DNA of 64,000 nt from Candidatus Latescibacterota bacterium (GCA_965217585.1 OZ244561.1:2400001-2464000), one strand, 5' to 3'. Numbered from the stretch's first letter, positions 37,703 through 53,728 are shown. Translations and numbers: made by a program. The notes: generated by a model from the letters alone, not told the origin.

Positions 37703-39070
37703 CTATGGCTGGTTGCCCATAATGGTAATCTCGCCCCCAAAGCCACCGGCAATTATCCTAGCGGCGAATGCCTGGACCAGACCGCTCGGCAGGTTGGGGT
37801 TGTCCTCAATCCACAGGTACTCCCCGACGCTTTGCACGTTGTCCAAGGCTTTGAGGCTGGCCAGAGACATATTGCCATCTATCTGCAGGACGTTTCCGAC
37901 GCTTTGCAGATTGTCGAGGCCCTCGAGAGAGACCAGGGATGCATTTCGGTGGATCATCAGGCGACTCTCGATCCGAGTGAGCTTGTCCAGGCCCTTAAGG
38001 TCGGTCAGGGCATCGCTGCCCCAGATCGTCAGGCCCCCCCCGACGCTATGGAGGCTGCGCAGCCCCTCCAGGCTGGTCAGCAGTCTATTGTCGCGAATTA
38101 TCAATTCATCTCCGACGCTTTGCAGGTTGTGCAGACCTTCCAAGCTGGTCAGAGAGACATTGCGGTAGAGACTCAGGTTGCCCCCGATGCTTCGCAGGTT
38201 GTCCAAACCTTCCAGATTGGTCAGAAGGTCGTTGTGCAGGATATGCAGTTCGCCGCCGACGCTTTGCACGTTGTGCAGACCTTCCAGGCTGGTCAGAGCA
38301 AAATTGTGCTGGATGTGCAGATCGCCCGCGATGCTTTGCAGGCTGCGCAGCCCCTCCAGAGTAATTAGACCAAAGTTGTAGCCGATAATAGGGAGGCCGA
38401 GCTTCAGCGATCCCCCGATACTTTGCAGGTTGCGCAGCCCCTCCAGGTTGGACAGGGCCTCACCGTCGCTGAAGATACTTCCCTCGGACTCGCGCGCTGC
38501 TTGCTCATCGCCCTGGCTGCGAGTATGTCTTCGTTTTCTTTCGTCATAGTCCAGAGGTTCATTGCCGAAGATCCCCAAGTCTCCATCGATGCGGGTGACG
38601 TTGCGCAGGCCCTCCAGACTGGTCAGGGACGCATTGTCTCTGATTTCCAGCTTGCCTCCAATTCGGGCGAGCTTGTGCAAGCCATCCACATTGGTCAACG
38701 CTCGATTGTTGACAATTTCCAGGTCTCCATCGATGCGGGTGACGTTGCGAAAGCCGTCCAGACTGGTCAGGGCTGGATTGGCGCGCAGCCGCAAACCGCC
38801 GACACTATAAAGGTTGCCCAGGCCCTCCAGGCTGGTCAGGGTCGTTTCCTCAATGAACAGCTTGCCGCTGATACTGACGCAACTGCTGCCATCGCCTGCC
38901 AGAGCCTTTAGGTCCTCTAAGGTGCCGATCGAAAAGTCCCCTTCCCGGTTTATCCCTCCTTCAGAGCAGGCATTGCTCCCAATAGATGATGCCGGACCTG
39001 CGTCATCATCCCCGCAGCTGGCGAGCACGGCAGCGGCCATCGCAATCAACAGACCACAGACCATGCGCAT
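37703..39070 (-). CDS. Lipoprotein with receptor-L-domain-like leucine-rich repeats
   Basis: Lipobox LASC. About 13 copies of a 24-aa unit LTSLEGLxNLxSVGGxLxIxxN. Confidence 0.85.
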   Translation of the reverse strand: MRMVCGLLIAMAAAVLASCGDDDAGPASSIGSNACSEGGINREGDFSIGTLEDLKALAGDGSSCVSISGKLFIEETTLTSLEGLGNLYSVGGLRLRANPALTSLDGFRNVTRIDGDLEIVNNRALTNVDGLHKLARIGGKLEIRDNASLTSLEGLRNVTRIDGDLGIFGNEPLDYDERKRRHTRSQGDEQAARESEGSIFSDGEALSNLEGLRNLQSIGGSLKLGLPIIGYNFGLITLEGLRSLQSIAGDLHIQHNFALTSLEGLHNVQSVGGELHILHNDLLTNLEGLDNLRSIGGNLSLYRNVSLTSLEGLHNLQSVGDELIIRDNRLLTSLEGLRSLHSVGGGLTIWGSDALTDLKGLDKLTRIESRLMIHRNASLVSLEGLDNLQSVGNVLQIDGNMSLASLKALDNVQSVGEYLWIEDNPNLPSGLVQAFAARIIAGGFGGEITIMGNQP

Positions 39071-39082
39071 ATGCTCCTCTCT

Positions 39083-40771
39083 TTACTGCTTATATTCGGA
39101 TTCATCCGGTTCGTACAGGGTGAGTACCTGGTTCACCTCCATGCCCGTGAGCTGCTCGACGATGCCACTGGGCCAGCGGATCTCCACCAACTCGATTTTT
39201 TCCACCGCACCAAGCCCAAAATGAAGACGCAAATCATTCTGGGACAGAAAACTTGAACCACTCCTGACCTCGTCGATCTGCAAGCGGCCATCTGCCACGA
39301 CCTTGACCAAGGCTCCAATGCCGTCCCGATTGCTGGAGGGCCTCCGGGGTCGGCCCTGTGAGGCACCGGAGGAGGCGCGGGGGCCATTCCCGATCAGTTT
39401 GACGCCCAGCCAGCGATTCCGATTTCCACCGTCGTTGCGCAGGAGTGCGGCTGGCTGGTTGTTATTGGAGACCACCAGATCCAGATCCCCATCCTCATCG
39501 TAGTCTCCGACCGCCGCCCCGCGGCTCACCTGCACCAGCGCCAAGCCCGGTCCCGCCGAATTAGTCACATCGGCGAACCTGCCCTGACCGTCGTTTCTGA
39601 AAAGTTGGTTCTGCTGGGCATAGGCCACACTAGTGTCGAATAGCTCCACATTGTCATCCAAGTGGCCATTGGCCACGAAGAGGTCGCAGTCTCCGTCGTT
39701 GTCGTAGTCGAAGAAAACCGTCCCCCAGGCCAGAAATCTCAGGCTCGGTATGCCCAATCCCGACTCGAAGGTGGTATCGGCGAAAAACCCGTTGCCCAGG
39801 TTTCGGTAGAGATTGTTGGTCTCCCACTGGTAGTTGGTCACGAAAAAGTCGAAGAACCCATCGTGGTCGTAGTCTCCCGCAGCGACCCCCATCCCGGCCA
39901 AGGCCTCTCCGGCGTCGTCAAAAGCGACCCCGGCCAAGAAACCGACTTCGGTGAAGCGGCCCCCATCATTGCGGTAGAGCAGATTGGGCGTGCGATCCCC
40001 GGCCACGTAAAGATCCAAGTCGCCGTCCTGATCGTAGTCGCTGAAGAGGGCCCCCAGTTCCTTGGCCGCCCGGGGCCGCAAGCCGACTGTATCGCTAATG
40101 TCTACAAAGGTTCCGTCCCCCTCGTTTCGGAAGAAGACATCCGCCTGTGGATCGAAGGCCTCGGGTCCGCAGTAGACCTGTAGCCCTTTAGCTTGAATGC
40201 AGGGCGGGTTTACCTCCGGCGGGTACTCCACGTAATTGGCCACATAGAGGTCGGGATCGCCGTCCTGGTCGTAGTCTGCAAAAGCCGCTCCTGTGCTAAA
40301 ACCCGGATGGCCCACTCCCGAGCGGCTTGTCACATTGGTAAAGCTCCCATCGCCATTGTTGCGGTAGAGGATATTGGGCCCGTAGCAAGTGATGTAGAGG
40401 TCGAGATCGCCGTCCTGGTCGTAGTCTGCCGCGGCACAGCCCATCCCGTGGCCCGATTCGGCCACCCCGGCAGTGGCTGTGGTCTCCTCGAAGCGCCCGT
40501 CGCCCCGATTGCGGTAGAGGGCCCCCGACCCGGCGCTGTTGGCAAAGTATAGGTCGAGCCAGCCATCGGCGTCGTGATCAAAGAAAACCACCCCCGAACC
40601 CTGCGTCTCCGGGAAATGCTTTTCCCCTGTCGCCCCATTCTGGTGGCGAAAGGCAATCCCGGCCATAGCAGTGACATCGACGAACTGGACCTCGGCCTTT
40701 GCCGGCAGTTGAAGAAGAACCGCTGCTGCGAGGCAGCACCCGGACAAAGAAATATACCTTACCTTCGCCAA
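39083..40771 (-). CDS. CRTAC1-like FG-GAP/VCBS repeat protein with ASPIC/UnbV domain
   Basis: Signal peptide, repeated DYDxDGDxDLY..N, and C-terminal GSSFLSQNDLRLHFGLG...IRWPSG. Confidence 0.9.
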   Translation of the reverse strand: MAKVRYISLSGCCLAAAVLLQLPAKAEVQFVDVTAMAGIAFRHQNGATGEKHFPETQGSGVVFFDHDADGWLDLYFANSAGSGALYRNRGDGRFEETTATAGVAESGHGMGCAAADYDQDGDLDLYITCYGPNILYRNNGDGSFTNVTSRSGVGHPGFSTGAAFADYDQDGDPDLYVANYVEYPPEVNPPCIQAKGLQVYCGPEAFDPQADVFFRNEGDGTFVDISDTVGLRPRAAKELGALFSDYDQDGDLDLYVAGDRTPNLLYRNDGGRFTEVGFLAGVAFDDAGEALAGMGVAAGDYDHDGFFDFFVTNYQWETNNLYRNLGNGFFADTTFESGLGIPSLRFLAWGTVFFDYDNDGDCDLFVANGHLDDNVELFDTSVAYAQQNQLFRNDGQGRFADVTNSAGPGLALVQVSRGAAVGDYDEDGDLDLVVSNNNQPAALLRNDGGNRNRWLGVKLIGNGPRASSGASQGRPRRPSSNRDGIGALVKVVADGRLQIDEVRSGSSFLSQNDLRLHFGLGAVEKIELVEIRWPSGIVEQLTGMEVNQVLTLYEPDESEYKQ

Positions 40772-40808
40772 GAAGACCCCCGTGAGACTACTTCTAACCC
40801 CTCTGATT

Positions 40809-42167
40809 TCATTCTGTCAGACGTCGGTAGATCTCCAGTTCCGCCTCGCCCTCTGCCCGCCGGTCTTGCCCAAGGTAGATCATGCCCAAGCTGTAGTGCG
40901 CATCGCCGTGGTTGGGCTCTATCTTGATAACTTTCTGGAAAGCCCGGATCGCCCGCGGCGCATCGCCCATGGCCAAGTAGGCGGTCCCGAGGTTGTAGTA
41001 GGCCTGGACATAGCGGGAATTGAGCGCCAAGATCTTCTCGTATTGGCCGATCGCCGCGGCCATTTTCCCTTGCCGGAGGAAGATATTGGCCAAGTTGTTG
41101 CGGGCGCTCAGGTCGGTGGGATTGATGGCCAAAGCTTGTTGGTATTCGGCCGCCGCCGCCGGGAAATGGCCCAAGCCAGCGTAGAGCACCCCGAGATTGT
41201 AACGGGCATCTGCGTCCTCCGGGTAGAGCGTCAGGATATATCGGTAGCGCCTGATTTCATCGCTCGCTTTTCGCAGGCGCTGGAAAGCGGCCAGTAGCTT
41301 TTGGCCTTCCTCAGTCCTTGCCTGTCTGAGGTAGAGCTTTCCAAGCCGGTGATAGGCTTCTTTTTCAAAGGGGTCGGCGGCAAGAGCTTTCTGAAGAGCA
41401 GTCTCCGCTTCGGCGGTCCGCCCTTGCTGGAGAAGCACCTGTCCCAGCAAGGTATAAGCATTGGCGTATCCCGGATTGTGGCGGAGAACGGCTCTGGAGC
41501 TCGCCTCGGCCTCCTCAAGGCGCCCCAACTTGGTATAGATCTGTCCGAGATGATAGTACGCATCAGCGTAGGAGGAATCGAATGCTACTGTCTGCTCGTA
41601 CGCGGCAATGGCAGACTCGGAGCGGGCCTGTTGCTCGTAGACCACTCCCAGATTGTAGTGGATGGCGGCATTCTCCGGTTCGAGCCGAAGCGCCTTGGTC
41701 AAGGCTGCGGCCGCATCGTCATAGCGGCCCTGAGCGCTAAGGACTATGGCAAGCTTGCGATAGGGAGAAACGCGGTCGGGAGCCAGCAAGATCGCCTCTT
41801 CGTAAGCCACGGCGGCAGAGTGATTCCGGCGCTCCCGCATGTACAGATCGCCCAGCGCAATGCGGGCTTCGACATCGTCCGGATAGAGCTGCACGGCTTG
41901 GGCGATGTGTCGCGTAGCCAGCTCAAACTTGCCCTGCTTCTGAAGGATGGAACCGGCAAGCAGGAGGACCTCGAGATGGGTCGAATCCACTTCCAGGGCT
42001 TGCTGGCAAGCTGCGATAGCTTTGAGATAGCTGCCGGCCTCGGCCAGACGCTTGGCCTCGGCGTATGCCGCCTCGACCCGCTTCTGCGACCTCTGGTCGC
42101 CACAGCCGCTGGTGGCGAGGACAGTAAAAAGGGCGAAGCACCAAACTTTAAATACCGGCTTCTGCAT
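40809..42167 (-). CDS. TPR-repeat lipoprotein
   Basis: Lipobox TSGC and roughly a dozen TPR units (AxYNLG..Y). Confidence 0.88.
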   Translation of the reverse strand: MQKPVFKVWCFALFTVLATSGCGDQRSQKRVEAAYAEAKRLAEAGSYLKAIAACQQALEVDSTHLEVLLLAGSILQKQGKFELATRHIAQAVQLYPDDVEARIALGDLYMRERRNHSAAVAYEEAILLAPDRVSPYRKLAIVLSAQGRYDDAAAALTKALRLEPENAAIHYNLGVVYEQQARSESAIAAYEQTVAFDSSYADAYYHLGQIYTKLGRLEEAEASSRAVLRHNPGYANAYTLLGQVLLQQGRTAEAETALQKALAADPFEKEAYHRLGKLYLRQARTEEGQKLLAAFQRLRKASDEIRRYRYILTLYPEDADARYNLGVLYAGLGHFPAAAAEYQQALAINPTDLSARNNLANIFLRQGKMAAAIGQYEKILALNSRYVQAYYNLGTAYLAMGDAPRAIRAFQKVIKIEPNHGDAHYSLGMIYLGQDRRAEGEAELEIYRRLTE

Positions 42168-43806
42168 CCATCTTCTTCAAGCGGTCCTCAAATAGGACGA
42201 TCTTAGAGGCGTACTTCTCCTTCAGGCTGAGAAGTAAGGTGCTGATTAGCTCCTCTTCCTTCTCCTTCCTCAGCCAGTATCGCGCCCTCGTCGACGCCTT
42301 CTCAAAGGGATCGGGCATCAAACCGCTCTTCTCCACCACCTTGAATACTGTATAGCCTTCCTCGAGCTGTAAGGGACCTTTCAGCTCTCCCACCTCTGCC
42401 TGCAAAGCCTCGTCGTAGAGGGGACCGTAATGCGCCTGTCCATAGGTGTGCATATTAATGAAGCCTTTGGTTTTCTCGGCCCCACTTCTGATACTATAGC
42501 GCTCGGCCAAACGCTCCATTTCCTCCCCGTTCAGAATCCGTTTCAAGACCTCCTCGGCCTCTTCCCGGGTTGTACACAGAATCTCCTGGACGGTGATCTG
42601 TTCGGGCTTTTTAAAAAGATGTAGATGGCTTTCGTAGTAGGAGCGCACCGCTTCGTCGCTCAGGTCGATCCGCCGATCCACCTCCCACTCTTTTAAAGTT
42701 TCGATCAGCATAGCCTTTTTCTTGGCCTCCAGCCAAGCGGCTACCGACGAGTCCTGATCAATTCCCTGCTTCAGAGCTGCTGCGGACAGGAGTGGGACCG
42801 GCAAGAGCTCCCGATAGATGAACTCGGCGATGCCGCTGCTGTCAAATCTGACCGATCGGAAGCGGCGGACTCTCTGGTAGGTGTCGGCGAAATCTTTCAA
42901 GGTCAACTGTCCGCCATCGAAACGGCACAGAACCACCTCCTGTTCCCGTTTTGCTATATCCAGAGTATCTGCGCCAGAGCTTGGAGCCCTTTCTAATAAG
43001 AATGAGATGCCTTCCTGGTCTAGCTGCACCTCGAATTGGGTGGCCAGCTCCTCTATCAGCTCTTTATGGCGGGCCCGGGAGGTTTCCGTAAGCTGGACCC
43101 GGGCATAAATAAAGGCGTAACTAGCGGGGGGAGGCCCCTCGGCCACGACATGGAAGATCTCGTACCTATCTCCTATCTCGAAAGGCTGGCTGATCTTCCC
43201 CACCTCTAGCGCGAAAACTTCCTCTGCCACCTCCACCGGCATCCCCTGCTCTTCCACGTTTCCACGCCCGTAGAGGGGACCGAGCAAGCCACCTTGGGAG
43301 GCGGTCTCTCGATCGGTAGAACGAAGTTTGGCCACTTCCCCGAACCCTTTTCCCTGCTCGAGCTCTTCCATTACCTCCCGGGCATCCTTCTCGGTCTCCA
43401 CCTGGATATGGGCCAGCTTCAGCATGCGGTTCCACTTGGACTGCTCGAAGCTACGTCGCAATTCGCCTGATGAAAGATTGATCTTTTCTTGGACTTCCCG
43501 GCGGAGAATCTCCCCGAGCAGTTTTTGCCGCCGCTCGTGCTCCCATTTACCCAGAAACTCCGAATCCTGGTCTATGCCCTGCTTCCGGGCCTCGAGTAAC
43601 ATCAGCTCCATATCGACCATGCTGTCGAGGTATTCGCGCCACACCTGAACGCCCTCCTCCTCAGAGCGGAGCAGAGCGGGCATATCCACATTGAACCGAA
43701 GCAGGTCTTCGACCGTAATCTCCACTGTATCGACCCGGGCTACCACATTGTCGTCCGCTGTGTCACCGCAGCCGGACAGCCACAAAAAAAACGCGACTAG
43801 CGCCAA
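42148..43806 (-). CDS. SurA/PrsA-like foldase with two PpiC (parvulin) domains, predicted lipoprotein
   Basis: LSGC lipobox, VVARVD, HIQVETEKDA..F.EVAK..S.D..GG.LG, and a second QEIL..EEAE..LAERYS. TTG start with AGGAGG RBS. Confidence 0.85.
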   Translation of the reverse strand: MALVAFFLWLSGCGDTADDNVVARVDTVEITVEDLLRFNVDMPALLRSEEEGVQVWREYLDSMVDMELMLLEARKQGIDQDSEFLGKWEHERRQKLLGEILRREVQEKINLSSGELRRSFEQSKWNRMLKLAHIQVETEKDAREVMEELEQGKGFGEVAKLRSTDRETASQGGLLGPLYGRGNVEEQGMPVEVAEEVFALEVGKISQPFEIGDRYEIFHVVAEGPPPASYAFIYARVQLTETSRARHKELIEELATQFEVQLDQEGISFLLERAPSSGADTLDIAKREQEVVLCRFDGGQLTLKDFADTYQRVRRFRSVRFDSSGIAEFIYRELLPVPLLSAAALKQGIDQDSSVAAWLEAKKKAMLIETLKEWEVDRRIDLSDEAVRSYYESHLHLFKKPEQITVQEILCTTREEAEEVLKRILNGEEMERLAERYSIRSGAEKTKGFINMHTYGQAHYGPLYDEALQAEVGELKGPLQLEEGYTVFKVVEKSGLMPDPFEKASTRARYWLRKEKEEELISTLLLSLKEKYASKIVLFEDRLKKMDAEAGI

Positions 43807-43818: not shown

Positions 43819-44586
43819 CTACTGCCCCGGGGCGGGCGGCTCGAGGGCATAGTTGACCTCCCGGGTGAACTGATAGGGAATATCGACTTTCTCCATTGGC
43901 TCGTCCCGGTAGTCGAAGCGCAAGGTCATTTTCTCGATCCGAACCTCGAACTCCTCGACATCGTCGTCCAGCGCAGGAAAAACGACAAACCCTCCCTTTT
44001 CCTGACCACTGAAGATCATATCATCGTTGAAGAGCGTCTTCCTCAGAATGCTCTCTCGCTCCTTGAATGGCTTGTAGGTATTGCCCGCGTAGGCGATTGC
44101 ATAGGGCCAGTAGTATTCGATCAGGGCAGTGAGGCTGAGCGACTGATAGCGCCGTCCGTTGGGGGCTGTGATCTCAATCAAGGCCGGATCCACGCGCACC
44201 TTTGGATAGGCGTAGTTCTTTATCTTTAGCAGAAAGACCGCAAAACGGGCCGGTGCCTGTTCCTCACCCGACGGCTTCCAGTCGCCGTAGGTATAAGGAT
44301 TGACTGGAGCTTGGTACGGATTATCCCGGTAAAAGCCCGCAGGAGAGGTCGAATGAACTTCAAACTGCCGGTTCAGCATTTCGGCAGTTATAGGTTGCAG
44401 GCTGACCTCCAAGCGGCCCTTGACAAAGGTGATGCTGCGGTCATCTCCAACGTTAAATTCCTCGGTCTGCTGGGTCTCGGCAATGGGCACTATGGGTCCG
44501 GGAAAGTGCCGATAGCCCAATTTATAGCCGCAACCACCCAACAGCAGGGCTACTGACGCGATTGTGCTGAGTACAAATATCCCCAT
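43819..44586 (-). CDS. Hypothetical lipoprotein
   Basis: MGIFVLSTIASVALLLGGC lipobox and a beta-rich body. RBS GAGG before ATG 44586. Confidence 0.7.
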   Translation of the reverse strand: MGIFVLSTIASVALLLGGCGYKLGYRHFPGPIVPIAETQQTEEFNVGDDRSITFVKGRLEVSLQPITAEMLNRQFEVHSTSPAGFYRDNPYQAPVNPYTYGDWKPSGEEQAPARFAVFLLKIKNYAYPKVRVDPALIEITAPNGRRYQSLSLTALIEYYWPYAIAYAGNTYKPFKERESILRKTLFNDDMIFSGQEKGGFVVFPALDDDVEEFEVRIEKMTLRFDYRDEPMEKVDIPYQFTREVNYALEPPAPGQ

Positions 44587-46755: not shown

Positions 46756-49401
46756 TCAATCTGTACCTGTACTGGCAAATATGCGCACGAAACCGATGGA
46801 TTCATCTCTGGCATCCTCTTCTTTGAACTTGGTACGCCGCAGTTGCAGACCTGTATTCGCGGTTATCTGGTAGCCCAAGTAGGCAGAAGTGTTGGAAATG
46901 AGGATCGAATAAACCTGGCTGCGGAAGTCGTCGACAAAGCCCGGGGGCGGCTCTTCCGGTCGCTCCTCCAAGTTTTCAAACCAGCTAAATTCGACCCCGC
47001 CTTCCAGCCATGTTCCCGGAAGCAGCGAGTAGCGGGTAATCAGAAATAGGGTTTCCTCAAGGTCGCGGGATTTCAGGCTCGATTTTGTCGAAGGGGTCTC
47101 GCGCCGAAATGTGCTCTTCCACCTAGGCCAGAGTATCAGGTCTTCCCCCACTTGAAGAGTGTACCCCGCCTTGTTGATCAAGCCGAAAAACGAGCGATTG
47201 CGCAGCTCGTCGGCCTGTTCTCCCCGCTGGTTGAAGATTTCGTACTTGATCTTGCCCTGAATATCCAGATCGCGAATCCGGTTGTACCTGGCCTGGAGGT
47301 ACAAGGTGTTGACAAAGGTGTCCTGATTCTCCAGGGGATCGCTGAAGTTCTCCGATCCCGTGGGATCTTTCCAGACCAGCCGGTCGTCCTTGATATTATC
47401 CTTTACCAGCTTGGCATGTTCGACCAGACCGATGTTCCACCCGGGCATATTCACCTCTGCCGTAAACAGTCCGTAGGTAGCGCGACTCTTCCTAGCGCTG
47501 CTAGGCATTCGTTCCTTCAGCCGGCCGATGGTAATTTGCGCTCTCTTAGCGAGCATCAGCCCTCCGTAGATATTGTATCCCCGGCGGTCCCGTTCGTAGG
47601 GAAAGTCCGGCTGCCGATCGTCCTCGAAGCGGTCGATGAGTGTGTTGTTGTTCAGGTCCATTCCGAAGAGGAACTCTGGAGGATCCACTGCGTAGCGCAG
47701 GAAGGGCTCGGCATAGTCGGGTCTAGAGTTGGCATTCTGGTTGAAATCGGAGACAAAGTCGTTGTTCTCGTCGAGTCCGGGGAAGACGTTGTTGTCGGCT
47801 CCCGCCCCTCCCACATCCCCGACCAGTCCGATCTGATTGATGCGTTGCCAGTCCGGAAAGCGGTCCTGGTCGTCGTTGTCGTCGACGAACTCAAACAGGT
47901 GCCTCTGCTCGTCGCTGTAGTCGATGCCCCCCAGTGAATTGGAGATGAAGGCCGTGGTGCTGTAGTCGGGAGCCATGTCAAAGGCCTCTGTGTAGACGAA
48001 CCAGGGATAGTTATTGTAGGAGGCCGTAACATAGGCCGCTTCGGCCTGGTCTTTTTCTGGATCGAGGTCGTTGACCCCAAAGTTCTGGTTGGGGAAGCGC
48101 CGGAAACGTCGGTTTACTGCGTACTCGGCGCGCAGGTCTAGGCCTCCTAAGTTGTTTATCTCCAAATCCAGACCAATTACCTCGTGGGCTGTGGGCAGGC
48201 CGTACTCAAACCTAATGAAGCGCTGATTGGACCCATCGATGACCTCCTTCTCAGCTTGGGCAACTGGCAAAAAAACTTGGCCTCCCAAGCGATCTGTTTG
48301 TTTGTTGGATGAAACCTCCACCCGGTAGTCGTTGGCTATGATCAGCTCGAACTCCAGCTTGGAAATATCCCCCAAGGTCGGCACCTCTTCCGTCGGTCTG
48401 AAGTCGTTCCTGACATCGTAGATCAGCTCAATCACATCTGTGCCGCGCGCCTCGAGGTTGCCCTCACTGCGAATCCCGCCTCGTATCAAGGGGGTGATCT
48501 CCGGATGTGGCTTCCCGTTGATCACCACTTGGTCGAAGAAGAGGAGTGCCCCCGATTGCGGGGTTTCCGGAGAATCGTCCGAGATCCGGACGACCACGGT
48601 TTCCACGCTGCCCTGGTTCTGGGGCTCGGTCAGCACGCCTTTTAAGGAGTTGTCTCCCAGAGTCAGGGTACTGGTGGTGTTGGCGACGTTGACCCAGGTC
48701 AGCCCGATTTGCGCGAAGTCTCCTAACTGTCCAACCCCTCTGCCTGCCAAAAGCCTCGAGGTGTTCTCGGATCGGTTAGCTCCGGATGTCTGCGTGAGGG
48801 CCGAAAAGCCGGGCGCACTGAGTCGAGACGCCAAGATGGTCATAGCGTACTTGTCGGTGAGGAAGTCCCACTGGATACCATTAAAGGTCGGCTTGGAAAA
48901 GGTGAGGGGTGTCAAGGTCGTGCGGAGCGCATCGCCGATGGTCAGGGAAGTGTGGAACTGGCCTTTCTGGGCAGACGACACGATGACATTGTTGAACCAA
49001 CTCTGGTAAAACGCGTTCTTGAATATCTCGCTTCCGAGCCGCTCCGGACTGTTCTCGGTCCAGTCGTAGATCTTCCATCCCCGGGCGATATAATTACCAA
49101 AGAGGTCGTATTGCCGGGTTCCTTCGAGCAGAATGTTCACGTAGCGCTGATAGTTTTGCCGGGCATAGTTACTGTACTCCCACCCCCGCCAGCTATATTC
49201 ATAGTACAGATTCTGGGGAAGATACCACTTCCGGCGGTTGGGAGCCAAGGCACCAGGGCGGACCCGTGCTCCGTAGATTCCCGGCTCTTCGACAGGGCGG
49301 TACCCGGTGAATAACTGAGCGTTTGCTGGGATTTCTCCCAATATGATACTGCTCAAGAAAAGCAACATTACCGGTCTTAAATGGCCTATTGCCTGCGACA
49401 T
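46756..49401 (-). CDS. Large secreted protein, putative outer-membrane beta-barrel with Asp/Asn-rich loop
   Basis: Signal peptide, alternating hydrophobic/aromatic strands in the C-terminal third, and DDNDDQDRFPD / DENNDFVSD / DLNNNTLIDRFEDD. Confidence 0.6.
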   Translation of the reverse strand: MSQAIGHLRPVMLLFLSSIILGEIPANAQLFTGYRPVEEPGIYGARVRPGALAPNRRKWYLPQNLYYEYSWRGWEYSNYARQNYQRYVNILLEGTRQYDLFGNYIARGWKIYDWTENSPERLGSEIFKNAFYQSWFNNVIVSSAQKGQFHTSLTIGDALRTTLTPLTFSKPTFNGIQWDFLTDKYAMTILASRLSAPGFSALTQTSGANRSENTSRLLAGRGVGQLGDFAQIGLTWVNVANTTSTLTLGDNSLKGVLTEPQNQGSVETVVVRISDDSPETPQSGALLFFDQVVINGKPHPEITPLIRGGIRSEGNLEARGTDVIELIYDVRNDFRPTEEVPTLGDISKLEFELIIANDYRVEVSSNKQTDRLGGQVFLPVAQAEKEVIDGSNQRFIRFEYGLPTAHEVIGLDLEINNLGGLDLRAEYAVNRRFRRFPNQNFGVNDLDPEKDQAEAAYVTASYNNYPWFVYTEAFDMAPDYSTTAFISNSLGGIDYSDEQRHLFEFVDDNDDQDRFPDWQRINQIGLVGDVGGAGADNNVFPGLDENNDFVSDFNQNANSRPDYAEPFLRYAVDPPEFLFGMDLNNNTLIDRFEDDRQPDFPYERDRRGYNIYGGLMLAKRAQITIGRLKERMPSSARKSRATYGLFTAEVNMPGWNIGLVEHAKLVKDNIKDDRLVWKDPTGSENFSDPLENQDTFVNTLYLQARYNRIRDLDIQGKIKYEIFNQRGEQADELRNRSFFGLINKAGYTLQVGEDLILWPRWKSTFRRETPSTKSSLKSRDLEETLFLITRYSLLPGTWLEGGVEFSWFENLEERPEEPPPGFVDDFRSQVYSILISNTSAYLGYQITANTGLQLRRTKFKEEDARDESIGFVRIFASTGTD

Positions 49402-49455: not shown

Positions 49456-51765
49456 CTAATAGACCACGCTGATTGTCTGGGCCAAGGCCTCATCACTGGT
49501 CTGCGCCTCTATATCGATCCGGCATAGATAGATCCCGGGAGGCACCAGAGTCTGGCTATGGTCCTGACCGGACCAAGTAAAGAGCCATAACCCGTCCGTC
49601 TGACGCTGTCCCTCCAGTTGCCGCACCAAGCTACCGTCCAAGGTGTAGATCTGAACCTGGGCCGGCATGTCCACTTTCAAAATATTAAAGCGGATCTCTG
49701 CCTCGTCCCCTACGCCATCGCCGTTGGGAGTAAAGACAGGCTGGACCGAAAGATTGGCAATAAGCCGGTCACTCGAAACGACGTCGGGCAAGAAGACCGT
49801 GGTCGAGAAGCGCACATCGGCATCGGGATCAACTGGTTGCCAGAGTTCGGGGTTTTGAGTGTTACCGACAAAGGCCTTAAAATGATACGGGCTCTGCACT
49901 ACATTGACATACATCTCAATGTCTACTGGCTGCTGCTCCACTAGCTGGGGAAGCTCCACTATGAGAGAATCCGGGAAAAACTGCACGGCCTCGGTCGCCA
50001 GCACCACTGGGCTGCCATCTATCTGGACCGAGAAGCTGTCGGCATCCGCCTGGGAGGGGGTTTCCACCCGGATGCGGTCAAAGCCGGAATCTCCCGGACC
50101 GAACTGGGGCCGAAGGTGATATACAAATTTCTGGGCAACGCCCGGCCGGGCCTCTTTGGGCTCAATCTCGCCCACCGCCCCGATCAGAAAAGCATCGTCG
50201 AAATCGAGAGAAAGCGAACGCAAGGTCGCCGCTGTGTCCGGTCGGTCCGAAATCAGGGAGACCGCAAACTGCACGTACCGACGCGGACTTGGAGAAAGAA
50301 ACTCCTGCCCGGAAAATCGATAGGGATTGCTCCAGCCGCTCCAGTCTGCTCCTTCCACTAGGACTGCCTCTTTTTTGCCTCTCCGGGGTTTGGGCAATTT
50401 GTTGTAGAGTTCCTCGGTAACCTCGTTGCCATTTTTATCGTAGTAAATGGTCTGCTCTTCAAAGGTATTGCCCGAGCGGGTCTGGGCTTGCACCTTGGTA
50501 CCTGCGGGCAAGTCCGCATCCCAGCTGAGCGAGCGAAGCACCTTGGGCCGATCTCCCAAATCCTCAAAGCCCGAGGTCATCTCTACTTTGGCTATGTATC
50601 CGACCGGGAAGACGGCGATATCGTTGAGAATACTGCTCCTGTTGCCGACGTAAATATGCAGCATGTGGCGGATAGACTTAGGAGGGAACATGAGATAGTT
50701 CAGCCACTGGGGTGTGTTCCAGCCAATCGCATCGGGAAAATCGAAGAGCAGATCGAATTCTATCTCTCCGGCCAGAGTGCGTCTGGACCCGTCCGAGACA
50801 AATAACTGGACTCTCTGGTGGCCCGAGGTGGCGGCGTATGCCCCTTGCCCCTGACCCGCGTCCAGCGGCGCTAGTTCGAGAATCCGGTTTACCCAGAAAT
50901 GGGCCCCCAGATCCCAACTCCAGCTGAACTTGGCAGTCGGGTCCGTACTACTCACCTGCCAAGTGGTGCTGAGGTCCCCATCGACCAAGGCACTGGCGCG
51001 ACCAGTCGGCTCGGTTATAGTGCCGCCTCGATCAAAGATGCTAAGGGCAATATTCTGTCCAAAGGTGAAGACTTCCACTTCGGCAAGGGCCGCATCCGCA
51101 GTTTGGGCATCTACGACAATGCGCACGAACTGGATTGGTCCGTAGGTGGTCGAGGTATCTGTACCCGCCAGGGCTGCAGGACCAAATAGGCGGTTATTAG
51201 ACACCCTGCCGAAGGCCTGAACCGGGTATTCGATCAGAGTCTGTTCGTTCAGCCTGCTGGTGCCGCCAATTAAGTCGAAAAAAAAGAAATCCTGGCCTTG
51301 CGCTTGTCTAACGCCATTCGAGCCGAGGACTCGGAACACCCCTAGGGGCTTTGCCCCTTCTTGGTCGGGAAAGTGCAGGCGGATCTTGCTGGTCGGGACC
51401 GCCCGTCCCAAGTTGATCTCGATCCACCAATTCTCCACAGGGTCATTCGGATCGGGCTTCCAGAAGGTCTCGAGATCGCCATCAATGATATTGGCGGCAG
51501 CGTTCGGGTTTGATCCGACTTTCCACACTCCTCCTTGCACTTCTCCCTGCTCTTTTGTCTCATGGGTAAATTGATCCGCGTCGAGCGCGGCGTTGATGGA
51601 CGACTCGAACTTTATCGGGGTGATGGAGCCATCTGCCCCAAACTCGAGGGTTCCGGCAGGAAAATTCCACTCCTGGTCCACCTGGAACACCTGCCCTCTG
51701 GCCCCTTCTTCTATCAACGGGACTAGCAGGAAAGAAAAAGCGCAGAACTTGACCAGATTCTTCAT
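49456..51765 (-). CDS. Secreted protein with F5/8-discoidin-like domains and FlgD-Ig/CTD-like C-terminus (paralog 2)
   Basis: AANIIDGDLETFW..WIEINLG, LVDGD..W..WDLG, WSGWSNP and VFTPNGDG...VPPGIY...ISVVY. Confidence 0.75.
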   Translation of the reverse strand: MKNLVKFCAFSFLLVPLIEEGARGQVFQVDQEWNFPAGTLEFGADGSITPIKFESSINAALDADQFTHETKEQGEVQGGVWKVGSNPNAAANIIDGDLETFWKPDPNDPVENWWIEINLGRAVPTSKIRLHFPDQEGAKPLGVFRVLGSNGVRQAQGQDFFFFDLIGGTSRLNEQTLIEYPVQAFGRVSNNRLFGPAALAGTDTSTTYGPIQFVRIVVDAQTADAALAEVEVFTFGQNIALSIFDRGGTITEPTGRASALVDGDLSTTWQVSSTDPTAKFSWSWDLGAHFWVNRILELAPLDAGQGQGAYAATSGHQRVQLFVSDGSRRTLAGEIEFDLLFDFPDAIGWNTPQWLNYLMFPPKSIRHMLHIYVGNRSSILNDIAVFPVGYIAKVEMTSGFEDLGDRPKVLRSLSWDADLPAGTKVQAQTRSGNTFEEQTIYYDKNGNEVTEELYNKLPKPRRGKKEAVLVEGADWSGWSNPYRFSGQEFLSPSPRRYVQFAVSLISDRPDTAATLRSLSLDFDDAFLIGAVGEIEPKEARPGVAQKFVYHLRPQFGPGDSGFDRIRVETPSQADADSFSVQIDGSPVVLATEAVQFFPDSLIVELPQLVEQQPVDIEMYVNVVQSPYHFKAFVGNTQNPELWQPVDPDADVRFSTTVFLPDVVSSDRLIANLSVQPVFTPNGDGVGDEAEIRFNILKVDMPAQVQIYTLDGSLVRQLEGQRQTDGLWLFTWSGQDHSQTLVPPGIYLCRIDIEAQTSDEALAQTISVVY

Positions 51766-51781
51766 CGGAACAATCCTTTCC

Positions 51782-53728
51782 TCAGTACACTATTCCCACA
51801 GTCTCCGCCCGCACAAAGCTTTCCTGGTCGGCGTTAACCGAAACCTTGACCAGATAAATGCCCACTGGAAGCAGTTCCTCGCTGTCGTCCCGTCCATCCC
51901 ATGGCCTTATATGATTTCCGCTCCGCTCCTCCCCGGCCAGGGTCCGCACTCTCCGACCCGCCAGATCGAAGATTTCCACCTCCACCTCCACAGGCTCTAC
52001 CAGCTGTGAAAGGGTGAGCGCGATCAAAGCCTTTTCGTTGATCGCATCCCCATTGGGCGAGAACACCCTCGGAGTGACCTCGAAAGAGGACAGGATCTCC
52101 CTAGCGGACTCGGCTGCAGTCAGCACCCGCAGCGTATTGGTCGTTACCTCGGGGTTGGCATCGCCCGACAAAACCCTCTGAGGCACCTCTTCGCTTTGGG
52201 TATCGAAGACCTCGGCGTTCAAGAAGCTCCCTTGGACAAACACCTGAGCCTCGAAAATAATCTGCAGGACGTCTCGGCCAACTATCCGATGGGAAGAGGG
52301 GAAGAGTAAGGTCAGGCTGCCGAGTTCCTCTATAATCTCGGTGGGTTCTACCTTTTCAGGAGGATCTCCTATGAAGAGTTCCCCGAATTTTGGCTGCGAC
52401 GAGGGGGTGAATATCCGGATGCCATCAAAGCCGATGTCCGTTCCCGCAACATCGGCGATGAGATCGTAGACAAAGGTGACGAACTGGCCGACCGGCACGA
52501 CGGCCACACTGCGCGGAGGACGGGGCTCGTCCAGCACAGAGACCTCTCCGATTAATTGCTGGGCCAGCGGCGGAATAGAGTGCTCCACACTCAGAGAAGT
52601 GACCTGCATGCCGTCTAAAATGGACTGGCTCCTCATGGCGATCTCGAACTGAAAGTAGCGGCGCGGACTGGGCAGGGTGATTCTCTGCCCGGAGGCGGTA
52701 AAGGGCGATGACCAAAGACTCCAATTGATCTGGTCGTCTTGAATCCCGCCCTGTTCGTTTTGACCTAACTTGTTGTATTCGTCCTCTGTCACTACCTCTC
52801 GCTCCCGGGTAAACCGATCTACCAGCCGAAAAAAAACCCGGGGATTGTCGTCCGTCCCCGTGCGCATCCGGACGGAGATCTCTGTGTCGGCGTCTTCCAC
52901 TACGACCGGACTGTCGCCTTCCTGGCGCAGTCCCTCGACCGCCCATTCAAGCCGGCTGAAATTGGCCACCTCCCCTAAGTCAATGATCTTGGAGGTATAA
53001 CTGGCTTGGGGAGCGAAGCCTTTGCCGAAAAGCTGAAATTCGGCGATTTCGAATGGATTCGGAGAATTTACATGCAGGCGGATAAAGCGAATAAACTGCA
53101 GCGGAAACAAGACCTCCGCCGTGTCCTCACGGGTGAATTCCACCTGCCGGAGGAGGCTGTAATCCGGCCTATTGTCTTGGGTAAAGCTCAGCCCGTCGCT
53201 GGAGAAGAGACTGTAGCTCCGGATAAAATCCTCACTATAAGGTCGTCCTTGATCATCTACGCCAAACGGACGTGGAAAAAAGAGAATTCTATTCATCGGG
53301 ATCCGGGTCCCCAAGTCGAATTCAAATCTTCTCCCATTCTGTTGGACCCCGAATACCTTGAACTGATCCCCGGTGGAGGTAGTATCTTGCCCATCTACGA
53401 TCACCAGTTGCGACTCTCTCAAGGTGGTATTGTCCCAGATATGGGCCTGGGCACGCTCTTCAAGAAACCCTATCGGGCGGGCGCTGACCCAGCTCAACTG
53501 CTGGGTGATATTGTTCTGGGGATCGAATCCCAAACTCTTGATAGTTCCCGCCTGGGAAAAATCGAGAGCCGTCGAAGCCAGCTCCTGCGAAGCCCAAGAT
53601 TCGCCGCCTTCTCCCACCTTCCACTCCCTCACCTCTCCCCAGCTAATCCCCGACATGGCCGCAATCCAGATCGCCGTGATCGCCACCACAGCCGGCCTTT
53701 TCGATTGGGGCTTCATTGTTTTCCGCAT
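51782..53728 (-). CDS. Secreted protein with discoidin-like domain and FlgD-Ig/CTD-like C-terminus (paralog 1)
   Basis: Signal peptide, IVDG..FDLG, WSLWSSP and VFSPNGDAIN...WDGRD...GIY...VGIVY. Confidence 0.75.
   Translation of the reverse strand: MRKTMKPQSKRPAVVAITAIWIAAMSGISWGEVREWKVGEGGESWASQELASTALDFSQAGTIKSLGFDPQNNITQQLSWVSARPIGFLEERAQAHIWDNTTLRESQLVIVDGQDTTSTGDQFKVFGVQQNGRRFEFDLGTRIPMNRILFFPRPFGVDDQGRPYSEDFIRSYSLFSSDGLSFTQDNRPDYSLLRQVEFTREDTAEVLFPLQFIRFIRLHVNSPNPFEIAEFQLFGKGFAPQASYTSKIIDLGEVANFSRLEWAVEGLRQEGDSPVVVEDADTEISVRMRTGTDDNPRVFFRLVDRFTREREVVTEDEYNKLGQNEQGGIQDDQINWSLWSSPFTASGQRITLPSPRRYFQFEIAMRSQSILDGMQVTSLSVEHSIPPLAQQLIGEVSVLDEPRPPRSVAVVPVGQFVTFVYDLIADVAGTDIGFDGIRIFTPSSQPKFGELFIGDPPEKVEPTEIIEELGSLTLLFPSSHRIVGRDVLQIIFEAQVFVQGSFLNAEVFDTQSEEVPQRVLSGDANPEVTTNTLRVLTAAESAREILSSFEVTPRVFSPNGDAINEKALIALTLSQLVEPVEVEVEIFDLAGRRVRTLAGEERSGNHIRPWDGRDDSEELLPVGIYLVKVSVNADQESFVRAETVGIVY

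Follow-up and report, generated by a model that had tools for sequence, protein, structure and literature searches.

Proteins of the T9SS (type IX secretion system) that carry a type-B CTD (C-terminal domain) bind cognate PorP/SprF barrels that are encoded adjacently (passages of PMC9143113 and PMC12618676), and the published anchoring model is one of non-covalent docking (passage of PMC9143113). In PorE, a single chain carries both TPR and WD40 domains (passage of PMC12773672), and the T9SS is considered possible in FCB phyla beyond Bacteroidota in a passage that does not name Latescibacterota (PMC11285876). Deinococcus SlpA forms a 30-stranded outer-membrane barrel (PF21620) that has Asp-coordinated metal sites in its insertions and an accessory beta-sandwich lipoprotein, DR_0644 (passages of PMC9388160).

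Here, a 64-kb window, that is, the whole stretch of DNA analysed, was found to contain a gene cluster that, judged from sequence comparison, belongs to an outer-membrane module of Latescibacterota type that exists in multiple copies, of which the cluster is one. No published description of this module, which recurs in many copies within one poorly known phylum, was found in the literature searched. A preliminary description had interpreted the cluster as a dedicated outer-membrane display or uptake complex, which is partly supported by the results below.

Gene layout and conservation

The cluster and its neighbours comprise the following genes.

51782..53728, minus strand: tailed surface protein 1, 648 aa, with a signal peptide, a weak CBM32/discoidin-like N-terminal region and an Ig-like tail
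49456..51765, minus strand: tailed surface protein 2, 769 aa, with a signal peptide, an F5/8 type C (discoidin) domain and a tail
46756..49401, minus strand: 881-aa secreted protein of an unnamed family, a probable large outer-membrane beta-barrel
44627..46702, minus strand: tailed surface protein 3, 691 aa, with a signal peptide and a C-terminal tail
43819..44586, minus strand: small lipoprotein of an unnamed family, 255 aa from the ATG at 44586
42148..43806, minus strand: SurA-like lipoprotein foldase, 552 aa, with two parvulin domains
40809..42167, minus strand: TPR lipoprotein, 452 aa, matched by many TPR models well above cut-off
39083..40771, minus strand: FG-GAP / ASPIC-UnbV (CRTAC1-family) secreted protein, 562 aa
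37703..39070, minus strand: LRR / receptor-L-domain lipoprotein, 455 aa, a non-core add-on
34344..35435, minus strand: CBM9-like secreted protein, 363 aa, a module member beyond the reported span
33255..34214, minus strand: second CBM9-like secreted protein, 319 aa
54054..56027, plus strand: DUF6785 + DUF6784 polytopic membrane protein, 657 aa, divergently transcribed

The nine co-directional ORFs between 37703 and 53728 are all present on the minus strand, and the recomputed gaps agree with the 12–54 nt or short overlap reported earlier: in the order above they are 16, 54, 53, 40, 12, −20 (an overlap), 37 and 12 nt, where the 40-nt gap presumes that the lipoprotein starts at the ATG at 44586, a start favoured by an alignment of 17 homologues. 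The N-termini, judged by eye, likewise bear out the claim that all nine products carry signal peptides or lipoboxes: a lipobox-like Cys was seen in four of them (the foldase and the 255-aa, TPR and LRR proteins), and the other five (the 881-aa and ASPIC proteins and all three tailed proteins) have signal-peptidase-I-like N-termini. The reported absence of porP, sprA, gld, TonB and SusC genes was reproduced, in that no PorP/SprF, SprA, Gld, TonB/ExbBD, Plug or SusC match was obtained for the nine proteins and 35 further window ORFs, chosen from 89, to which the family scan was applied.

Conservation was analysed in the best 80 of 395 loci; these represent roughly 25 assemblies, all from one phylum, and the counts are therefore not independent. 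Among the 47 loci with complete 10-kb flanks, CTD-tailed proteins were present in all 47, with three copies in 37 loci, followed by the small lipoprotein (44/47), the CBM9-like family and the parvulin foldase (42/47 each), the TPR protein (39/47), the CRTAC1/ASPIC protein (38/47) and the DUF6785/DUF6784 membrane protein (21/47), whose gene is part of the operon in one of the gene orders. Of these members, the ASPIC protein, the TPR protein and the foldase are frequent without being universal. The LRR gene, which had been counted as part of the system, occurs in two loci (L001 and L002) and is a lineage-specific add-on. By these counts, eight of the nine genes belong to a module conserved in Latescibacterota-type genomes, with the LRR lipoprotein outside it. 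The module reaches past the reported span, to the CBM9-like genes on one side and the DUF6785/DUF6784 gene on the other. The idea of a dedicated outer-membrane module held for the syntenic set around the 881-aa and tailed proteins and failed for the LRR gene, and the original gene list was right for eight genes and incomplete for the CBM9-like genes and the DUF6785/DUF6784 partner.

Synteny, on which the preliminary description had staked its interpretation, was observed: a tailed protein accompanies the 881-aa homologue in 53 of the 55 loci having at least 4 kb on both sides. The two exceptions (L045 and L048), together with three loci with shorter flanks (L038, L042 and L056), form one clade of the 881-aa family without partners in the examined flanks. 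In the best 80 of 395 loci, 420 of the 444 adjacent core-gene pairs are on the same strand, with a median gap of 12 nt; the gene directly upstream of the 881-aa gene encodes a tailed protein in 56/80 loci and is of the 769-aa type in 44 adjacent pairs, and the usual neighbour of the TPR gene is the ASPIC gene (40 adjacent pairs).

The locus maps, read by eye, show at least eight gene orders of the module, and genomes carry up to five or more paralogous copies. In a tree of 77 copies, deep clades with good support were resolved, every one of them having a gene order of its own, and several clades are represented within single assemblies (five loci each from OZ247580.1, CBDCDC01 and JAJDVZ01). 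In a distant sister branch, 13 distinct clusters all lie on contig sequence of the same size, 5,870,491 bases. The arrangement is more than chance, as it recurs in related loci. Each of the domain types is common on its own in FCB-group genomes, and the cluster could in principle be a chance meeting of ordinary T9SS cargo genes with genes for housekeeping chaperones and an outer-membrane protein unrelated to them; with co-occurrence in 53/55 well-flanked loci, through eight or more gene orders and paralogue clades that branch deeply, such a coincidence is contradicted by the synteny counts and is scarcely credible.

Tailed proteins, the 881-aa protein and their partners

All three tails bear a TPNGDG-type motif, match FlgD_ig and CHU_C (Pfam) and end in Tyr, and a tail HMM run over the window gave exactly three matches, the 648-, 769- and 691-aa proteins, in agreement with the earlier assignment of CTD tags to these proteins. 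Against the CHU_C cut-off of 27 bits, the 769-aa protein scored 29.5 bits, the 648-aa protein 25.8 bits at full length and 30.6 bits for the tail alone, and the 691-aa protein 24.1 bits; the corresponding FlgD_ig scores were 26.5, 33.1 and 20.8 bits. Both scores of the 691-aa protein are sub-threshold, and its tail HMM match has an E-value of 2.1e-37. Among 67 tails, CHU_C matched 66 (E<=0.01) and FlgD_ig 61, and the closest Pfam model is thus CHU_C, consistent with the type-B-like character claimed for them. TIGR04131 (cut-off 35 bits) gave 18.3 and 20.4 bits for window tails and matched 47/67 tails at E<=0.01; TIGR04183 (cut-off 23 bits) gave 21.2 bits for the full-length 648-aa protein and 25.0 bits for its tail alone, and matched 42/67 tails at E<=0.01; Pfam Por_Secre_tail matched 2/67. 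In addition, the 648-aa family profile matched the FlgD Ig domain 3osv (E 4.9e-8). These matches indicate, at the level of sequence, that the tails belong to the T9SS-CTD/FlgD-Ig superfamily.

Each module encodes two or three paralogous tailed proteins of 620–920 aa; in the window, the 648- and 691-aa proteins are 32% identical over 666 aa (E 9e-92). The F5_F8_type_C match of the 769-aa protein scored 35.5 bits, a scan of 54 tailed proteins detected this domain in 19, and CBM-like matches were weak for two of the three window proteins, including the CBM32 matches of the 648-aa family profile. The tailed proteins thus appear to consist of a discoidin/CBM32-like N-terminal part and an Ig-like C-terminal tail with a nearly invariant tyrosine, which is terminal in 164 of 170 tails. 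Within 1.45 Mb, 179 ORFs bear such a tail, and 175 of them are members of the protein family of the module itself. Of the four non-module ORFs, which come from related loci, three score above the cut-off for type-A CTDs, and one of these three shares an assembly with a 95%-identical orthologue of the window locus.

The 881-aa protein belongs to a large family (671 homologues found; 973 representatives at 50% identity) and gave no Pfam, NCBIfam or PDB sequence match; relaxing the threshold to E<=10 across 29 family members likewise gave no Pfam or NCBIfam match. Coevolution, computed on 394 sequences, revealed antiparallel ladders at residue pairs (185,224), (237,408), (424,457), (663,696), (715,744), (761,787), (786,808), (803,831) and (838,847), with 57 cells at z>=6 versus 3–9 in shuffles, and a full-alphabet rerun recovered most of them. 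The pattern is that of consecutive long antiparallel hairpins with an insertion between paired strands; the ladders represent a beta-meander only, with no coevolution signal for first-to-last strand pairing. An inserted domain lies at about residues 240–405 and an Asp-rich segment at about 504–605. A simple amphipathic-strand counter failed to tell E. coli barrels from soluble controls. The ladders, together with the weak SlpA_C and PF21620 matches of distant relatives given below, make it probable that the 881-aa protein is a large outer-membrane beta-barrel that contains the inserted domain and the Asp-rich segment.

Known barrel families were considered for this protein. As previously stated, no match to SprA, PorP or TonB-receptor families was obtained: a TonB-dependent transporter or SusC was rejected, with neither Plug nor TonB_dep_Rec matched and an hhalign probability to E. 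coli FhuA of 0.37%, and LptD was rejected at a probability of 0.06% for the family profile. An SlpA/OmpM-type connector was rejected as well, as no SLH domain or coiled-coil family was reported for the protein or 28 aligned relatives, and PF21620 did not match the window protein.

The 881-aa protein might instead be an abundant, SlpA-like envelope scaffold, with the three tailed proteins as a surface coat. SlpA_C matches were obtained in 7 of 33 distant representatives, all sub-threshold (best 30.2 bits against the PF21620 cut-off of 35 bits), and database annotation places PF21620 on 41 of 120 proteins of the distant sister branch, which hhalign joins to the 881-aa family (E 5.7e-91 over 791 columns); the Asp-rich segment and the small lipoprotein also parallel the metal sites and accessory lipoprotein of SlpA. 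However, a PDB search with the profiles of both branches gave no match, SlpA included, the SLH domain and coiled coil are missing, and several diverged copies per genome beside differing transporters and enzymes are unexpected for a housekeeping scaffold. We consider such a scaffold quite improbable.

In the 255-aa lipoprotein, the lipobox Cys is invariant in 17/17 aligned homologues, and no Pfam, NCBIfam or PDB match was found. The 552-aa protein contains two parvulin stretches (Rotamase 80.6 bits, Rotamase_2 74.7 bits), scores 19.5 bits for SurA_N_3, below the cut-off of 27.2, and aligns with E. coli SurA by BLASTP over its N-region and first parvulin domain (23% identity, 205 aa, E 2e-7). 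It is thus a SurA-type foldase, with a SurA-like N-region followed by parvulin domains, and differs from SurA in being a lipoprotein. The 562-aa protein, with FG-GAP_3 (174.6 bits) and UnbV_ASPIC (77.1 bits) above cut-off and a match at E 1.7e-20 to cartilage acidic protein 1 (PDB 9etn), can be assigned by its domain order, FG-GAP repeats then UnbV_ASPIC, to the CRTAC1 / ASPIC-UnbV family. The LRR lipoprotein matches Recep_L_domain (73.8 bits) and LRR_EndoS (32.7 bits), and its gene holds 72-nt tandem repeats.

Glycan capture and uptake as a proposed function

Beyond the nine genes, the CBM9-like family profile derived from the loci matched the 363-aa (hmmsearch E 7.1e-83) and 319-aa (E 1.1e-84) products, which are 89% identical. 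This profile matches the CBM9 of Thermotoga xylanase (1i82; E 1.6e-4), and Pfam CBM9_1 matches 10 of 23 family members. The 657-aa membrane protein (DUF6785 392.9 bits, DUF6784 97.7 bits; 14 hydrophobic 19-mers) is a candidate inner-membrane partner. An inner-membrane transporter lies inside the flanks of 35 of the 47 full-flank loci, and none was found within 10 kb in the other 12. Neighbouring genes encode GFO/IDH/MocA, xylose-isomerase-like, MR_MLE, DHDPS, PhyH, BNR_2, aldo-keto reductase and FGE-sulfatase proteins. The CBM9-like proteins, the transporter partners and the sugar-catabolic neighbours tilt the reading toward uptake over pure export. No glycoside hydrolase or polysaccharide lyase was found in 39 flanking proteins sampled from 12 loci or among the window ORFs scanned, which gives no support to a classical polysaccharide locus.

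We propose that the module is a surface glycan-capture and uptake complex in which CBM32-like proteins are tail-anchored to the barrel, a reading to which we assign a probability of roughly 45%. The tailed proteins would be exported, probably by a T9SS, as suggested by the classical type-A cargo in sister genomes, and their tails would dock on the 881-aa barrel and hold them at the cell surface, as modelled on the docking of type-B CTD proteins on PorP/SprF barrels. The carbohydrate-binding-like domains and the CBM9-like proteins would then capture a glycan or sugar, the barrel together with the lipoprotein would admit it, and the DUF6785/DUF6784 protein or an ABC transporter would carry it over the inner membrane and hand it on to the sugar oxidoreductases and dehydratases encoded nearby. 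Dedicated periplasmic assembly or bridging roles may fall to the SurA-like foldase, the TPR lipoprotein and the FG-GAP propeller protein.

A serious, if unlikely, alternative, near the wording of the preliminary description, is that the 881-aa protein acts only as a cognate anchor or shuttle, or as a T9SS-independent translocon, for three tailed adhesins or enzyme scaffolds, with no import through the barrel. The near restriction of the tail family to module proteins, the nearly invariant terminal Tyr, which resembles a recognition signal, the dedicated SurA-like and TPR lipoproteins, which suit an assembly line, and the lack of hydrolases in the sampled neighbourhood are all consistent with it, as is the need of type-B CTD proteins for adjacent cognate barrels (passage of PMC12618676). 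Conversely, a display module would not need the transporters and sugar-catabolic genes, and the many paralogues of constant architecture suggest a nutrient-receptor pattern. PorP/SprF anchors are much smaller than about 880 aa, and a barrel of this size far exceeds them.

Secretion of a cell-made polymer through the barrel, with the tailed proteins handling it outside, appears very improbable. Among the named Atlas clusters, DUF6029 comes closest; this family has been compared to the Wzi barrel, with a proposed role in polysaccharide secretion (passage of PMC9603273), but its score of 0.89 is under the tool's evidence level and is a lead only. A TMEM260-like glycosyltransferase is encoded at 56047–58614, whereas no OPX, PCP, Wzx/Wzy or synthase family was found in the scanned window ORFs or sampled flanks, and the neighbouring genes encode catabolic enzymes and importers.

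Comparison with known systems

The module shares with Deinococcus SlpA a very large single-chain barrel candidate, Asp-rich segments, a small accessory lipoprotein and, in distant relatives, weak PF21620 matches. It differs in that its large protein is multi-copy and has no SLH domain, coiled coil, PF21620 match or PDB sequence match.

As in the LptD–LptE system, a large outer-membrane protein is accompanied by a small lipoprotein and a SurA-type foldase gene. LptE plugs LptD, and the lptD–surA gene order was confirmed in the E. coli operon. Unlike LptD, to which its profile aligns at the negligible probability given above, the 881-aa protein is multi-copy and is accompanied by tailed surface proteins and transporters.

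The SusC/SusD loci of Bacteroidota resemble the module in their many paralogous sets of outer-membrane protein, lipoprotein and surface carbohydrate-binding proteins, and in their link to inner-membrane transporters and catabolic enzymes. The module lacks the Plug, the TonB-dependent receptor domain and the SusD family, no glycoside hydrolases or linked regulator were recognised in its scanned window ORFs or sampled flanks, and its surface proteins are proposed to be tail-anchored rather than lipoproteins.

The T9SS type-B/PorP-SprF-PorE systems (Porphyromonas PG1035-PorP-PorE; Flavobacterium SprB-SprF) have in common with the module TPNGDG-motif Ig-like C-termini, genes that adjoin that of an outer-membrane protein, and an accompanying TPR-containing lipoprotein and beta-propeller protein. 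These systems belong to Bacteroidota, whereas the organism of the module lies outside this phylum; the partner here is an 881-aa protein of another family, with PorP_SprF unmatched in the scanned window proteins, and the tails lie under the TIGR04131 cut-off (18–20 versus 35 bits) and end in an almost invariant Tyr. In place of one arbitrary cargo, the module has two or three fixed paralogous tailed proteins, and it adds a small lipoprotein, a CBM9-like protein and a dedicated parvulin foldase.

Composition and conservation of the gene module

The cluster in the window comprises nine minus-strand genes, whose products were assigned by scans of Pfam and NCBIfam.

Genes of the cluster in the window (37703-53728), in gene order
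51782-53728 (-), 648 aa: tailed protein, FlgD_ig/CHU_C-like C-terminal domain
49456-51765 (-), 769 aa: tailed protein, F5/8 type C domain and a tail as in the 648-aa protein
46756-49401 (-), 881 aa: candidate outer-membrane barrel, no match to any Pfam or NCBIfam entry
44627-46702 (-), 691 aa: tailed protein, tail as in the 648-aa and 769-aa proteins
43819-44586 (-), 255 aa: small lipoprotein, no family assigned by Pfam or NCBIfam
Sixth gene (-), 552 aa: lipoprotein, two parvulin domains, SurA_N matched weakly
Seventh gene (-), 452 aa: TPR lipoprotein
Eighth gene (-), 562 aa: FG-GAP/ASPIC-UnbV protein
Ninth gene (-), 455 aa: LRR/receptor-L-domain lipoprotein

The intergenic gaps calculated from the coordinates are 16, 54, 53, 40, 12, -20 (an overlap), 37, and 12 nt, and the N-termini, as read by eye, are compatible with four lipoproteins and five signal-peptidase-I substrates. 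These observations agree with the preliminary description, which had proposed a co-directional cluster of nine genes with secretion-type N-termini. Its statement that no porP, sprA, gld, TonB, or SusC gene is recognisable in the window was also upheld, as no match to PorP/SprF, SprA, Gld, TonB/ExbBD, Plug, or SusC was obtained for the nine proteins and 35 others chosen from the 89 ORFs of the window.

The residue following the likely signal-peptidase-I site is Gln in the 881-, 769-, and 691-aa proteins (window positions 49401, 51765, and 46702, respectively), and the consensus of the 881-aa family at this site is Ala-Gln; the title of a published paper reportedly refers to a 'Bacteroidetes Q-rule'. 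Tandem 72-nt (24-aa) repeats matching at 67-74% (38037-38780) account for much of the LRR lipoprotein gene, and a PDB search with the LRR protein gave no match. The promoter and terminator scans gave 7 and 19 hits, compared with 7.1 and 15.6 in shuffles, neither being above the shuffles, and nothing was found by an Rfam search, a tRNA scan, or tblastn against plasmids.

Among the candidates scored, 671 are related to the 881-aa protein at E<=0.001, and a search of 1.84 billion representatives with the family profile returned 973 matches at E<=0.001 and 309 at E<=1e-30. For the 120 relatives listed, identity is 47-97% along almost the entire protein. Every one of them is unnamed or 'hypothetical' and lacks a precomputed Pfam domain, and the named sources are Latescibacteria or Handelsmanbacteria. 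No longer, fused form was found, which is weak evidence. In a scan of one genome per species, 395 places were confirmed and the best 80 retained; by label, these are 64 Latescibacter-type, 14 Gemmatimonad-type, 1 Handelsmanbacteria, and 1 'uncultured bacterium'. Since some of the Gemmatimonad-labelled copies are almost identical to Latescibacterota copies (branch lengths <0.01 in the tree), these labels may be no sign of a second phylum.

The nine window proteins were used as queries against the 3,887 ORFs of at least 90 aa called in the 80 loci, which are non-independent samples from about 25 assemblies with paralogues included; the main counts refer to the 47 loci with full 10-kb flanks. Tailed proteins were observed in all 47 loci (37 loci have three copies, 7 have two, 2 have one, and 1 has four), the small lipoprotein in 44, the foldase in 42, the TPR protein in 39, and the ASPIC protein in 38. 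In addition, clustering of the unassigned ORFs identified a secreted protein of ~300 aa as a further frequent partner (42/47), and a membrane protein with DUF6785 and DUF6784 was present in 21/47. When the flank requirement was relaxed to 4 kb or more on either side, 55 loci qualified, and the tailed protein, the lipoprotein, and the 300-aa protein were found in 53, 48, and 47 loci, respectively. The neighbourhood check thus bore out a conserved synteny for the homologues of the 881-aa and 255-aa proteins. The LRR gene, which had been counted as part of the system, has to be removed from it: it occurs in 2/47 loci, L001 and L002, whose 881-aa genes are orthologues 96% and 95% identical to that of the window.

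These two additional partners are both encoded in the window, and therefore the module exceeds the reported span of 37703-53728.

Further module genes in the window
33255-34214: 300-aa family, profile match E 1e-84, in tandem with the next gene
34344-35435: 300-aa family, profile match E 7e-83, in tandem with the preceding gene
54054-56027: DUF6785/DUF6784 protein, divergent from the operon

Neighbouring core genes lie on the same strand in 420 of 444 pairs, with a median gap of 12 nt between adjacent ones and gaps of <=60 nt in 78%. In 56 of the 80 loci, the gene immediately upstream of that for the 881-aa protein encodes a tailed protein, the TPR and ASPIC genes are usually neighbours (40 adjacent pairs), and at least eight different gene orders can be read from the ORF assignments of the 80 loci. 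The two exceptions without a tailed protein among the 55 loci, L045 and L048, fall in one clade. In this well-supported clade, which also includes the shorter-flank loci L038, L042, and L056, the flanks of the 881-aa gene that were covered (up to 8.4 kb upstream and up to 10 kb downstream) are free of genes for the tailed proteins, the lipoprotein, the CBM9-like protein, the foldase, the TPR protein, and the ASPIC protein; its close downstream neighbour is an MR_MLE-type gene. Chance adjacency is among the less likely explanations of the module.

A maximum-likelihood tree of 77 copies of the 881-aa family contains deep, well-supported clades, each with its own gene order and with near-identical copies from several assemblies. 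Single assemblies are represented in several clades, and OZ247580.1, which holds L001, CBDCDC01, and JAJDVZ01 each contribute five of the 80 loci. The three tailed proteins of the window are mutual paralogues (32% identity over 666 aa, 28% over 530 aa, and 27.5% over 385 aa). All genes of the module share one duplication history.

For the helper proteins, the 552-aa lipoprotein aligns to E. coli SurA over the chaperone region and the first parvulin domain (E 2e-7), which, with its two parvulin domains, confirms the earlier assignment as a SurA-like foldase. The ASPIC protein matches the solved structure of cartilage acidic protein 1 (E 1.7e-20). By analogy, we infer that the foldase, the TPR lipoprotein, and the propeller would act as assembly or bridging factors.

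Several other features of the window were recorded. A low-GC island at 5436-7890 (with 1984-5187; GC 0.44 at 6001-8000 versus ~0.6 around it) encodes an HTH_3 + Peptidase_M78 (ImmA/IrrE-like) protein, with relatives at 24-28% identity in phage records, and a 396-aa TPR protein, and adjoins the gene for a 1067-aa UvrD-type helicase; the island may be what is left of a mobile or defence element. At 30001-30065, a 32-nt unit is perfectly duplicated in tandem (two copies) near the end of the histidine-kinase gene 29154-30101, upstream of a LytTR response-regulator gene. The beta and alpha subunits of a Na+-translocating oxaloacetate decarboxylase are encoded at 17193-20137 and 20413-21174, with a biotin/lipoate ligase gene nearby.

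The C-terminal tail and the fold of the 881-aa protein

The loci encode 170 tailed proteins with a length of 550 aa or more, and 164 of these end in Tyr, within the ending hydrophobic-x-hydrophobic-(Ala/Val)-Tyr. When the last 110 aa of 67 tails were scanned at E<=0.01, the Pfam entries CHU_C, FlgD_ig, and Por_Secre_tail matched 66, 61, and 2 tails, and the NCBIfam entries for the PorU C-terminal region, FlgD, type-B, and type-A matched 57, 55, 47, and 42, mostly below the curated cut-offs. The tailed-family profile matches the structures of the FlgD Ig domain (3osv, E 4.9e-8) and the PorU tail (6za2, E 0.004), and the tails carry the motifs TPNGDG and WDGRD together with the distinctive terminal Tyr. 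These mixed matches place the tail, as judged from its sequence, in the T9SS-CTD/FlgD-Ig superfamily, with an ambiguous subtype. The tail had been described as a type-B CTD; the superfamily and the TPNGDG motif stand, and in Pfam the tails are closest to the type-B entry CHU_C. With NCBIfam, 42/67 tails also match type A.

In the window, a tail HMM found only the three module proteins, and across 1.45 Mb of loci it found 179 ORFs, of which 175 are module-family proteins. The remaining four have a classical type-A appearance, and one of them shares an assembly with L002. Three of the four pass the type-A cut-off (TIGR04183, 23 bits), at 37.0, 36.8, and 28.4 bits.

Type-A T9SS sorting-domain proteins near modules
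L015:20780-22600 (-)
L075:20039-22165 (-)
L008:2-715 (+)

The type-A tails near the modules suggest that a T9SS is present in these bacteria. The literature search returned nothing on T9SS in Latescibacter or on FlgD Ig-like domains in secretion. One paper states, in a passage that does not name Latescibacterota, that T9SS may occur in several FCB phyla (PMC11285876), and a passage of an older review describes it as specific to Bacteroidetes (PMC7463736).

For the 881-aa protein, a large outer-membrane barrel is the most likely fold, as predicted from several kinds of sequence comparison. PDB sequence and profile searches with the family and its sister branch retrieved no solved relative, a Pfam search at E<=10 with 29 family members gave nothing relevant, and a PDB search with the small lipoprotein family was without a match. 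The sister branch of ~980-aa proteins (P0168-like) is homologous to the family over 791 columns (hhalign probability 100%, E 5.7e-91), and PF21620 (the SlpA barrel) is a precomputed annotation of 41 of the 120 proteins listed for it. PF21620 was matched by 7 of 33 distant representatives, all below the cut-off (best 30.2 versus 35 bits), and neither profile found SlpA in the PDB. Among the 120 listed sister-branch proteins (P0168, P0270-P0388), 13 clusters come from 5,870,491-base records, 6 from 5,734,604-base records, and 5 from 5,907,301-base records; the 13 clusters suggest a large expansion within one genome. The Atlas gave DUF6029 (score 0.89), as a lead only, and part of one paper describes DUF6029 as a Wzi-like barrel family (PMC9603273).

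For the coevolution analysis, mean-field direct coupling was applied to 394 sequences of the family (effective number 218). Cells at z>=6 numbered 57, compared with 3-9 in separation-preserving shuffles, and the strongest signals were antiparallel ladders at the residue pairs (185,224), (237,408), (424,457), (663,696), (715,744), (761,787), (786,808), (803,831), and (838,847), most of which were recovered in a full-alphabet run over 587 columns. The last 250 residues appear as long hairpins in an up-and-down meander, the centres of successive strands being 20-34 residues apart, and residues ~240-405 as an insertion separating two paired strands. A pairing of the first and last strands, which would close the barrel, was not detected in these data, and the strand number is not countable because ladders at z>=4 (71) barely exceed the shuffles (43-58). 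A relationship to LptD or FhuA was rejected, as hhalign to both E. coli proteins was negative, and an amphipathic beta-strand counter was discarded, as its values per 100 aa were 3.1-3.7 in the E. coli barrels LptD, FhuA, and BamA and 3.0-4.0 in soluble controls. A highly conserved, Asp-rich stretch lies at ~504-605, which we take to be similar to calcium-binding loops. Asp-coordinated metal sites are described for the insertions of SlpA in part of one paper (PMC9388160).

Carbohydrate-binding and transport context

An F5/8 type C domain was detected in 19 of 54 scanned tailed proteins (E<=0.001), chiefly those of the 770-920-aa type, and the profile of the 648-aa type gave weak, one-sided matches to CBM32/discoidin domains of glycosidases, galactose oxidase, and sialidase (E 0.0085 to 0.3). 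The 300-aa family matches the CBM9 of a Thermotoga xylanase (1i82, E 1.6e-4), and Pfam CBM9_1 was found in 10 of 23 members. An inner-membrane transporter is encoded within the flanks of 35 of the 47 full loci (DUF6785 in 21, CUT1-type ABC in 10, and CUT2-type ABC in 5). The neighbours sampled at 12 loci and in the window include GFO/IDH/MocA oxidoreductases, xylose-isomerase-like barrels, MR_MLE dehydratases, DHDPS-type aldolases, PhyH dioxygenases, amidohydrolases, BNR_2 proteins, aldo-keto reductases, and an FGE-sulfatase protein; glycoside hydrolase and lyase families were absent from this sample.

The window has three PhyH-family dioxygenase genes (15147-15980, 27290-28144, and 36834-37622), which adjoin MR_MLE, GFO/IDH/MocA, and 2-hydroxyacid dehydrogenase genes, and PhyH also flanks the module at loci L004 and L005. 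Directly after the DUF6785/DUF6784 gene, 56047-58614 encodes an 855-aa TMEM260-like (GT-C type O-mannosyltransferase-like) protein, and this pair is kept in L001; by its family resemblance, the protein might glycosylate the surface proteins. A second FG-GAP/ASPIC-UnbV protein (58738-60732 (+), 664 aa) has no adjacent TPR gene and is followed by xylose-isomerase-like barrel, BNR_2, and aldo-keto reductase genes.

Possible function and relation to known systems

We argue for a defined multi-subunit surface complex, and not a secretion system with arbitrary cargo, because the paralogous trio of tailed proteins is fixed, the tail subtype is nearly restricted to this trio, and the company of the 881-aa protein and the lipoprotein is constant. 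A role in capturing and taking up nutrients, similar to that of SusCD loci, is suggested by the domains of CBM type, the importers and sugar enzymes linked to the module, and the many diverged copies; we give it a probability of about 0.45. This figure is held down by four points: hydrolases did not turn up among the sampled neighbours, 12 loci show no transporter close by, one clade is without partners, and the barrel fold is a prediction. Display or anchoring without import, the main rival, is rather unlikely; a scaffold role and polymer export are less likely still.

Within the uptake reading, a TonB-independent outer-membrane nutrient importer of a new kind, a Latescibacterota counterpart of SusCD with all parts as proposed here, is tentative and somewhat improbable. 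In such a machine, a giant barrel of a new family would be plugged or gated by the small lipoprotein, and the fixed, CBM-bearing trio would crown the barrel, docking via the T9SS-like tails with the terminal tyrosine of each inserted into it. The module's own SurA-like, TPR, and propeller factors would carry out the assembly, and a new class of inner-membrane permease (DUF6785/DUF6784) would be fed.

Latescibacterota are widespread and uncultured, and to our knowledge their feeding is known only from gene inventories. In the literature searched, no description of the module, the 881-aa family, or DUF6785 was found. A genomic paper on the phylum mentions, in the part bearing on import, only non-specific porins and TonB-dependent import (PMC4454575). 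The module is a candidate answer to carbohydrate capture in an FCB phylum without SusCD-type loci, and would provide the first functional context for DUF6785/DUF6784 and bacterial CRTAC1/ASPIC proteins. If the reading is true, a many-copy module built from four or five unnamed families is a major part of the Latescibacterota cell surface, and T9SS-type tails gain a further use, as fixed complex subunits with a new barrel partner. It also yields clear structural predictions open to testing.

The set of SurA-like foldase, TPR lipoprotein, and propeller is reminiscent of PorE and of the BAM accessory proteins. In PorE, as part of one paper describes it, TPR and WD40 domains are joined (PMC12773672). 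As a whole, the module may by analogy be related to T9SS-type tailed surface proteins with a cognate outer-membrane partner. The published precedent for its proposed pairing of tail and barrel is that type-B CTD proteins dock on the cognate PorP/SprF barrels encoded next to them, as described in parts of two papers (PMC9143113; PMC12618676).
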